Below, piece after piece: positions 1-1,192 of a stretch of DNA of 1,192 bases (within the stretch, counting starts at the first letter, position 1; every line of letters begins with the position of its first letter). The position numbers and the translations under genes are program-made. Source of the DNA: a phage; the sequence record OR846218.1; one strand, 5' to 3'. Below the pieces are notes generated by a model, which was not told where the DNA came from, ran no database searches, and worked only from the letters and a program-made list of their open reading frames with translations.

Positions 1-77
1 AAATCTCCCGGAATAAGATTACACATCTTAGCTACAATATGAACTAACGTAGCATATGATGCAATATTAAATGGAAG
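1..77 (-). CDS. td: thymidylate synthase, exon 2 (5' portion only; CDS continues past window start)
   Basis: Minus-strand codons from 77 downward read CTT CCA TTT AAT ATT GCA TCA TAT GCT ACG TTA GTT CAT ATT GTA GCT AAG ATG TGT AAT CTT ATT CCG GGA GAT = LPFNIASYATLVHIVAKMCNLIPGD. This matches the conserved thymidylate synthase segment (E. coli ThyA ...LGLPFNIASYALLVHMMAQ...). The frame is continuous with exon 1 once 78..1093 is removed. No ORF-track entry because the fragment is short and lacks a start. Confidence 0.86.
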
Positions 78-224
78 CACTATGTTCAGATAAGGTCGTT
101 AATCTTACCCCGGAATTATATCCAGCTGCATGTCACCATGCAGATCAGACTATATCTCCAACTTGTTAAAGCAAGTTGTCTATCGTTTCGAGTCACTTGA
201 CCCTACTCCCCAAAGGGATAGTCG
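78..224 (-). ncRNA. 3' ribozyme segment of the group I intron (P6 3' strands, P7-P9 region, terminal G)
   Basis: Minus strand CGACTATCCCTTTGGGGAGTAGGGTCAAGTGACTCGAAACGATAGACAACTTGCTTTAACAAGTTGGAGATATAGTCTGATCTGCATGGTGACATGCAGCTGGATATAATTCCGGGGTAAGATTAACGACCTTATCTGAACATAGTG. It contains a 7-bp hairpin CAACTTG/CAAGTTG (159..178) and a 7-bp hairpin CTGCATG/CATGCAG with a GUGA tetraloop (126..143). It ends in G at position 78 immediately before exon 2. Confidence 0.8.
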
Positions 225-962
225 TTAGGCATTTATGTAGAACCAATTCCATTTATCAGATTTTACACGATAAGTAACTAATCCAGACGAAATTTTAAAA
301 TGTCTAGCTGCATCTGCTGCACAATCAAAAATAACCCCATCACATGAAATCTTTTTAATATTACTAGGCTTTTTACCTTTCATCTTTTCTGATATTTTAG
401 ATTTAGTTATGTCTGAATGCTTATGATTAAAGAATGAATTATTTTCACCTGAACGATTTCTGCATTTACTACAAGTATAAGCAGAAGTTTGTATGCGAAC
501 ACCGCACTTACAAAACTTATGGGTTTCTGGATTCCAACGCCCGTTTTTACTTCCGGGTTTACTGTAAAGAGCTTTCCGACCATCAGGTCCAAGTTTAAGC
601 ATCTTAGCTTTAACAGTTTCAGAACGTTTCTTAATAATTTCTTCTTTTAATGGATGCGTAGAACATGTATCACCAAACGTTGCATCAGCAATATTGTATC
701 CATTAATTTTAGAATTAAGCTCTTTAATCCAAAAATTTTCTCGTTCAATAATCAAATCTTTCTCATATGGAATTTCTTCCAAAATAGAACATTCAAACAC
801 ATTACCATGTTTGTTAAAAGACCTCTGAAGCTTTATAGAAGAATGGCATCCTTTTTCTAAATCTTTAAAATGCCTCTTCCATCTCTTTTCAAAATCTTTA
901 GCACTTCCTACATATACTTTATTGTTTAAAGTATTTTTAATCTGATAAATTCCGCTTTTCAT
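225..962 (-). CDS. I-TevI: Intron-encoded GIY-YIG homing endonuclease I-TevI (245 aa)
   Basis: ORF-track entry 225..962 (-), ATG at 962..960, TAA at 227..225. Protein starts MKSGIYQIKNTLNNKVYVGS (GIY at 4-6, YVG at 17-19) and has R27, E75 and N90 in the expected catalytic positions. A Cys4 zinc finger lies at C151/C153/C164/C167 (FCKCGVRIQTSAYTCSKC), followed by a C-terminal DNA-binding region. As far as I can recall, this matches phage T4 I-TevI over its full length. A GAGG Shine-Dalgarno lies 5 nt upstream of the ATG. Confidence 0.97.
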   Translation of the reverse strand: MKSGIYQIKNTLNNKVYVGSAKDFEKRWKRHFKDLEKGCHSSIKLQRSFNKHGNVFECSILEEIPYEKDLIIERENFWIKELNSKINGYNIADATFGDTCSTHPLKEEIIKKRSETVKAKMLKLGPDGRKALYSKPGSKNGRWNPETHKFCKCGVRIQTSAYTCSKCRNRSGENNSFFNHKHSDITKSKISEKMKGKKPSNIKKISCDGVIFDCAADAARHFKISSGLVTYRVKSDKWNWFYINA

Positions 963-990
963 AAATACCTCTTTAAATATAGAAGTATTT
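963..990 (-). promoter_or_regulatory. I-TevI translation-initiation region: Shine-Dalgarno (GAGG, 971..968) sequestered in a 10-bp hairpin
   Basis: Minus strand 990..963 is AAATACTTCT ATATTTAA AGAGGTATTT, followed by ATG. The two arms pair over 10 bp (9 Watson-Crick plus one U.G) around an 8-nt loop, burying the SD. This agrees with the published model in which I-TevI is translated only from late transcripts that start inside the intron and lack the 5' arm. Confidence 0.55.
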
Positions 991-1000
991 ATTAAAGGGC
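984..1000 (-). promoter_or_regulatory. T4 late-promoter-like element (AATAAATA, 993..986) and overlapping I-TevI operator-like sequence
   Basis: Minus strand 1000..984 is GCCCTTTAATAAATACT. AATAAATA is one mismatch from the T4 late promoter consensus TATAAATA. A start about 6-8 nt downstream would fall inside the hairpin, removing its 5' arm. The same stretch (CCCTTTAATA) resembles the exon-2 I-TevI binding sequence (CCATTTAATA, 74..65), as expected for the published autorepressor operator. Confidence 0.4.
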
Positions 1001-1093
1001 AGTCCTACAATTTAGCACGGGATTGTCTACTAGAGAGGTTCCCCGTTTAGATAGATTACAAGTATAAGTCACCTTATACTCAGGCCTCAATTA

Positions 1094-1192
1094 ACCCAAG
1101 AAAACATCTACTGATCGTTGATACCACTGCAAATCCAAATAGCCATTACGCACATTAAACTGATAGAACATATGACAAGGCGGTAATGCCAT
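1094..1192 (-). CDS. td: thymidylate synthase, exon 1 (3' portion only; CDS continues past window end)
   Basis: Minus strand from 1192 reads 33 in-frame codons: [37 protein letters not shown] holds the thymidylate synthase active-site cysteine (codon TGT at 1177..1175), and the segment aligns with E. coli ThyA DMALAPCHAFFQFYV...LYQRSCDVFLG. The exon ends at a codon boundary at 1094 and is followed immediately by intron TAA. Confidence 0.9.

Follow-up and report, generated by a model that had tools for sequence, protein, structure and literature searches.

In the 1192-nt stretch of phage DNA analysed here (sequence record OR846218.1; "the window" below), two complementary segments on the minus strand stand directly before the start codon of I-TevI, a homing endonuclease encoded inside a group I intron of td. 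An earlier note, made from the sequence alone, had read them as an RNA hairpin that buries the ribosome-binding site of I-TevI. We were interested whether this hairpin controls translation in RNA, or whether the complementarity arises from the overlapping late promoter, from a DNA-binding site or from another structural role. Folding, comparison of related introns and published work on T4 make us highly confident that the hairpin is a translational control element of the intron-encoded I-TevI, in which the ribosome site would be occluded on long RNA and open on the short RNA made late. The element is already known, being the characterised I-TevI ribosome-site hairpin; only mildly new are the conservation of sense-strand pairing across five genera and an analogous, stronger hairpin before a free-standing gene (L224).

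The td locus and its intron

As judged by sequence comparison, the window is a T4-type td gene with a group I intron and I-TevI. Over its full length it is 99.9% identical to Tequatrovirus and T4-like records annotated as td / I-TevI, and positions 900..1100 are 100% identical to T4 MT984581. Against T4 NC_000866.4, nine substitutions and one indel were counted over 1192 nt, none of them in the hairpin, and from the promoter box to the end of the ATG there is no difference from T4. The hairpin is framed by the following features:

1094..1192, minus strand: 3' part of exon 1 of td (thymidylate synthase); ORF 1091..1192, thymidylate synthase in matching records, boundary by comparison with T4
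78..1093, minus strand: td group I intron, 1016 nt; boundaries by comparison with T4 NC_000866.4
225..962, minus strand: ORF of the GIY-YIG homing endonuclease I-TevI, 245 aa and a stop; start codon ATG at 962..960
1..77, minus strand: 5' portion of td exon 2 (CTTCCATTTAATATTGCATC...), where I-TevI has its primary binding region within the homing site; by T4 comparison and thymidylate synthase annotation

Exon 1 ends in ...TTCTTGGGT and includes the I-TevI cleavage-site region; a TAA stop (1093..1091) stands directly at the 5' splice site of the td intron. GIY-YIG, I-TevI zinc-finger and I-TevI DNA-binding domains were detected in the I-TevI ORF (Pfam PF01541, PF22635 and PF20987; E 2e-18 to 3e-32), and the protein has a 100% identical counterpart in IMG/VR. 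Rfam RF00028 matched the 3' core of the intron (356..126, E = 3.2e-9) with 42.5 bits, short of the gathering score (50), since the ribozyme is interrupted by the ORF. The ORF sits in a peripheral loop of the intron; published work places both ORF and hairpin in the P6 loop, which is non-essential (PMC3073962; PMC3014915 also puts the hairpin there).

Just inside the 5' end of the intron, the second-longest local stem of the window (10 bp, 1082..1059, minus strand, UGAGUAUAAG / CUUAUACUUG, 4-nt loop) presumably represents one of the ribozyme's peripheral helices, for instance P2. The substitutions relative to T4 NC_000866.4 fall at positions 1115, 80, 75, 72, 60, 831, 145, 9 and 6, and the first five cluster on the I-TevI homing site. 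Position 1115 changes the T4 cleavage motif CAACGC to CAACGA, position 80 changes AUAAUG to AUAGUG at the 3' end of the intron, and positions 75, 72 and 60 turn CTACCGTTTAATATTGCG of T4 into CTTCCATTTAATATTGCA in the exon 2 binding region. Co-conversion tracts may lie behind this cluster, or else drift of the target site in a lineage that carries the intron.

Geometry of the hairpin and its expectation by chance

On the minus strand, AAAUACUUCU (990..981) pairs with AGAGGUAUUU (972..963) across an 8-nt loop. The coordinates given in the earlier note proved exact, with AAATACTTCT as 5' arm at 990..981, ATATTTAA as loop at 980..973 and AGAGGTATTT as 3' arm at 972..963, and the ATG follows the 3' arm directly (962..960, read on the minus strand). 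The pairing described there as a 10-bp stem is also present, with one G-U wobble (U984-G969), but the real stem is longer: two extra pairs, U991-A962 and A992-U961, extend it to 12 bp (992..981 / 972..961), and therefore the first two bases of the start codon are sequestered as well. The elements are thus delimited as follows:

981..992, minus strand: hairpin 5' arm, AUAAAUACUUCU; from strand reading and folding
973..980, minus strand: loop, AUAUUUAA; from folding
961..972, minus strand: hairpin 3' arm, AGAGGUAUUUAU, with GAGG (971..968) as Shine-Dalgarno and with the first two bases of AUG; from strand reading and folding

Folding of 960..992 gave -11.2 kcal/mol (z = -5.39; 1 of 200 dinucleotide shuffles folded as well), and folding of 955..995 gave -11.6 kcal/mol (z = -4.33; 0 of 200). 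In DNA as AT-rich as this window, stems of 12 bp or more are not rare, since 263 of 2000 dinucleotide shuffles (13%) contained one. For a fixed 4-nt site, the probability of falling within the 3' arm is about 0.0012 with stems of this length and 0.006 once stems of 10 bp or more are admitted. What exceeds chance is the position of the stem on the ribosome site, not the existence of a stem.

Predicted occlusion on long RNA and release on short RNA

When the full 1192-nt transcript was folded by partition function, all 12 pairs had P of at least 0.96 and the GAGG bases an unpaired probability of at most 0.002. The Shine-Dalgarno is accordingly predicted to be occluded in read-through td pre-mRNA, as the earlier note had supposed, and ribozyme pairing does not outcompete the hairpin in this thermodynamic model of the full 1192 nt, which leaves out tertiary structure, co-transcriptional kinetics and the effects of ribosomes and helicases. 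In a computed scan of 5' ends, opening 972..960 cost 9.6-12.2 kcal/mol for transcripts starting at 992 to 1010 and 1.3-2.0 kcal/mol for those starting at 972 to 984; RNAs starting at 984 or 980 folded as essentially unstructured. Loss of the 5' arm is thus predicted to free the ribosome site, the opening cost dropping from 10-12 to at most 2 kcal/mol, in line with what had been claimed. A high opening cost is not diagnostic without a promoter box in the 5' arm, because AT-rich leaders, sampled as 83 upstream regions of I-TevI-like genes, already have a median of 6.4 kcal/mol.

Such a box, and a further segment overlapping it, were located upstream of the start codon:

986..993, minus strand: T4 late-promoter-like box AATAAATA, inside the hairpin 5' arm; 7/8 match to TATAAATA
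991..1010, minus strand: segment resembling the I-TevI homing site, candidate autorepression operator; 14/20 ungapped match to the exon-junction homing site

The box is the only one of its kind on the sense strand just upstream of the ORF for I-TevI. It is one mismatch off the consensus, and matches of this quality are equally common in shuffles, the motif alone being not significant in AT-rich DNA. The sequence ATAAATAC is invariant in all eight td-intron variants described below, and Proteus phage phiP4-3 carries the exact TATAAATA. In T4 the promoter was mapped by primer extension (PMC2988022), and a T4 late promoter is an 8-bp TATA box at -10, about one helical turn upstream of the start (PMC2988020). 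From this promoter-to-start distance we infer for the present phage that the 5' end of the late transcript is expected near 980, at the boundary of arm and loop. Because the box itself occupies the 5' arm (993..986), late transcripts should begin roughly where the arm gives way to the loop, on its final bases or on the loop's opening ones, and not deep inside the arm. The earlier note had let transcripts begin inside the 5' arm and thereby free the site. A literature search for genome-wide T4 transcription-start maps covering this site returned nothing usable.

The homing-site similarity at 1010..991, matched as well by 75 of 2000 shuffles (about 4%), shares positions with the late-promoter box and with the top of the 5' arm. 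It agrees with the published I-TevI operator, which has 15/20 identity, overlaps the late promoter and is bound by I-TevI (PMC2988022). The single indel relative to T4 falls inside this operator-like segment, at 1002/1001, where the T4 RefSeq has an extra T (GGACTTGCCC vs GGACTGCCC); MT984581 and about 200 other phages agree with the window, and the extra T either distinguishes strains or is a mistake in the old reference.

Proposed mechanism and published work

The elements can be joined into the following scheme. Transcription of td from upstream early and middle promoters would give long pre-mRNAs that carry both arms, and in these the 12-bp stem would bury the Shine-Dalgarno and the first two AUG bases, so that I-TevI would not be initiated. 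Late in infection the T4 late RNA polymerase would use AATAAATA, which in DNA is the 5' arm, and would start some 6 nt further downstream, close to where the arm ends or the loop begins. The resulting short transcripts would lack the 5' arm, leave the ribosome site single-stranded and allow I-TevI to be made. According to the published rationale, keeping ribosomes off the intron in td pre-mRNA would permit the ribozyme (P6, P6a, P7) to fold and splice, and thymidylate synthase to be made. The same DNA segment overlaps an I-TevI operator, which would in addition give transcriptional autorepression.

The published basis on which the earlier note had relied does exist and describes the same mechanism (PMC2988022, PMC3014915, PMC3073962). 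For promoter mapping, de-repression on deletion of the hairpin and the splicing defect we draw on these three reviews of T4 experiments. The structure is described as forming only on early and middle transcripts, the late ones being without the sequence needed (PMC2988022; PMC3014915 and PMC3073962 agree), with a late promoter immediately upstream that is positioned so that late transcripts cannot form the hairpin (PMC2988022). T4 hairpin mutants showed less td splicing, accumulation of pre-mRNA and thymidine dependence (PMC2988022), and in a T4 phage deleted for the hairpin (Gibb & Edgell 2010) I-TevI was translated at early and middle times and splicing was poor (reviewed in PMC3014915 and PMC2988022). 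The primary sources named in the reviews are Gott et al. 1988 Genes Dev 2:1791, Edgell et al. 2004 Nat Struct Mol Biol 11:936 and Gibb & Edgell 2010 Mol Microbiol 78:35.

The locus is a textbook case of a selfish gene in a self-splicing intron that times its own expression and spares the host gene, and one 32-nt segment would serve three uses, as late promoter and repressor-binding site in DNA and as translational off-switch in RNA. Its confirmation here adds no new biology; it shows that a real, experimentally validated regulatory structure is recognisable from raw sequence, and it slightly extends the comparative picture by more genera, by strand-specific conservation and by a free-standing relative of the same design.

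Conservation among td-intron variants and alternative explanations

Eight distinct td-intron variants were compared: the T4-type, a metagenomic one (89%-identical protein), Mosigvirus LF82-4, Gelderlandvirus Melville and CGG4-1, Karamvirus EnC07, a contig with a 67%-identical protein, and Bragavirus phiP4-3. The hairpin occluding the ribosome site is kept in 8/8, which cover the genera Tequatrovirus, Mosigvirus, Gelderlandvirus, Karamvirus and Bragavirus, and 99% of the cells in their alignment form standard pairs. Six of the 12 pairs are invariant, four vary on one side (U-A to U-G type) and one is compensatory (U983-A970 to C-G), so that 5/12 vary with pairing kept; one sequence has a bulge. 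The loop is free to vary in both length and sequence (about 4-9 nt in folds of the variants). The most altered arms were seen in L214, with four stem substitutions in three adjacent pairs, none of them pair-breaking and one pair going from U-A to C-G.

Further homologues were sought by two scans. That of genome contigs gave one distant, irrelevant locus, and that of metagenomes gave mostly distant GIY-YIG genes with non-homologous upstream regions, td-type loci being L131-L133 only. The 18-nt upstream motif GACAATCCCGTGCTAAAT (1037..1020, minus strand) occurs exactly in more than 120 IMG/VR contigs (loci L011-L130), of which a handful are td/I-TevI introns; the loop just downstream of it holds many unrelated cargo ORFs, or none. 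Sharing of the motif amid unrelated cargo points to a phage group I intron family with a highly conserved core and swapped endonuclease cargo, and GACAATCCCGTGCTAAAT, as a general intron-core element, was dropped as a marker for homologous hairpins. The divergent variants L214 and L218 have AGGAG as Shine-Dalgarno where the T4-type has AGAGG (window 972..968); AGGAG includes GGAG, the motif of the T4 RegB endoribonuclease.

Conservation of the arms by itself is confounded, as each has a second role, the 5' one as promoter box and the 3' one as Shine-Dalgarno and start codon. One could accordingly suppose that the late-promoter box (T/A)ATAAATA happens to complement an A/U-rich ribosome site (...UAUUUAUG) and that the stem is a by-product without regulatory role. 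In the outer 8 bp (AUAAAUAC / GUAUUUAU) it is indeed essentially the promoter box that pairs with spacer and start codon, the 5' arm varies at two positions only, and promoter-like motifs are common in this AT-rich DNA. Covariation gives little help: a single pair is changed on both sides, and the observed score was reached in 66/500 shuffles, a weak result given how little variation the arms show. The inner pairs CUUCU / AGAGG, however, lie outside the promoter box and yet co-vary, being CUCUU / AGGAG in L214 with all pairs kept. Every change in the 3' arm keeps pairing via G-U, sense stability staying constant while antisense stability decays. Together with the positional chance of about 0.001 and the published hairpin-deletion phage, which translates I-TevI early and splices poorly (PMC2988022, PMC3014915), this makes an accidental stem improbable.

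The behaviour of the two strands also bears on whether the inverted repeat acts in DNA, as a palindromic protein site or a cruciform serving I-TevI autorepression or promoter control, instead of as RNA structure. Folded as RNA, the variants gave -10.3 to -13.4 kcal/mol for the sense strand and -2.1 to -9.0 kcal/mol for the antisense strand, where stability falls because the accepted changes are G-U wobbles. A palindrome needs Watson-Crick symmetry, but the wobbles gained by the variants correspond to C-A mismatches once read as DNA or on the opposite strand, and antisense folds weaken to -2.1 and -3.8 kcal/mol. Since I-TevI is a monomer when it binds its site, no dyad symmetry is needed there. 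A role in DNA would draw support from the operator-like similarity at 1010..991, which overlaps the segment, and from the published I-TevI operator overlapping the late promoter (PMC2988022); that similarity, however, comprises the top two positions of the 5' arm and upstream sequence, not both arms. We regard a purely DNA-level function of the repeat as very improbable. The strand asymmetry fits selection on the sense RNA and, as far as the variant sequences tell, argues against a DNA palindrome; it is a cleaner and more informative discriminator than the covariation statistics.

That a stable stem-loop within an intron should be an intrinsic terminator or attenuator, or a ribozyme part required for splicing, is scarcely credible, as a scan gave no terminator-like site at the hairpin, no U-tract follows it and its stem has 2 G-C pairs only, while natural ORF-less td introns lack it (L010, phage C2-3, with 990..295 cleanly deleted and both td exons intact) and it lies outside the Rfam intron core, in a loop that the literature calls non-essential (P6; PMC3073962).

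Comparison with known systems

The translational control element proposed here is the same as the T4 td-intron I-TevI hairpin in sequence, gene context and predicted behaviour (PMC2988022, PMC3014915, PMC3073962); the host genome is that of a T4 relative, and its nine substitutions and one indel bring no functional difference. The hairpins of I-TevII, I-TevIII, segB and Aeh1 mobE (PMC2988022, Figure 5) likewise hold the Shine-Dalgarno in a stem when the transcript is long and of early or middle origin, and a promoter of the late or middle class gives shorter transcripts without the 5' arm, as here. Their sequences are unrelated to the present one and their host genes are others, and mobE and segB are free-standing, not intron-encoded. 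In the T4 genes e (lysozyme), soc and 49 a helix also covers the Shine-Dalgarno, the AUG or both on read-through early transcripts and is absent from those of the late promoter (PMC3014915). For gene e the rationale is to avoid premature lysis, whereas for I-TevI the published one is to shield intron folding and splicing from ribosomes. Entry of ribosomes to a structured intron is similarly limited in the autoregulation of LtrA in the group II intron Ll.LtrB, where the Shine-Dalgarno of the intron ORF is occluded (PMC3073962); there a protein bound to the RNA is responsible, in contrast to the cis hairpin and promoter switch of I-TevI.

A free-standing relative and deletion variants

In L224, an uninterrupted thymidylate-synthase-like ORF is followed directly by an ORF (401..1195) for a 264-aa I-TevI-like protein with 39% identity; no intron was detected in this locus. 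Its leader folds into a hairpin (355..400, -19.3 kcal/mol) whose 5' arm includes the exact TATAAATA and whose 3' arm includes AGGA; with a transcription start 6 nt after the box, the predicted opening cost would be 1.8 instead of 22.2 kcal/mol. Tentatively, and with rather less than even confidence, the hairpin with a promoter in its 5' arm and a Shine-Dalgarno in its 3' arm might be viewed as a portable cassette that travels with I-TevI-family genes or is re-invented by them time and again. Should the case of L224 hold, protection of splicing would not be the sole selective reason for the design, because L224 has no intron to protect.

ORF-less td introns occur in several phages (matches H87-H92). 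Escherichia phage vB_EcoM_C2-3 (L010, 509..1004) has a clean 696-nt deletion, by which the 5' arm from 990, with it the whole hairpin, and most of I-TevI were lost. The deletion (window 990..295) spares the last ~70 nt of the ORF, which according to the literature contribute to the intron core. A different arrangement was found in the IMG/VR locus L092 (2802..3170), where td exon 1, the 5' part of the intron and an intact hairpin are followed by the first 6 I-TevI codons, fused in frame to apparent C-terminal codons of td (...SDFVLKNYESHPAIKAKMAV*), and then by nrdA; this locus is either a td deletion mutant or a misassembly.
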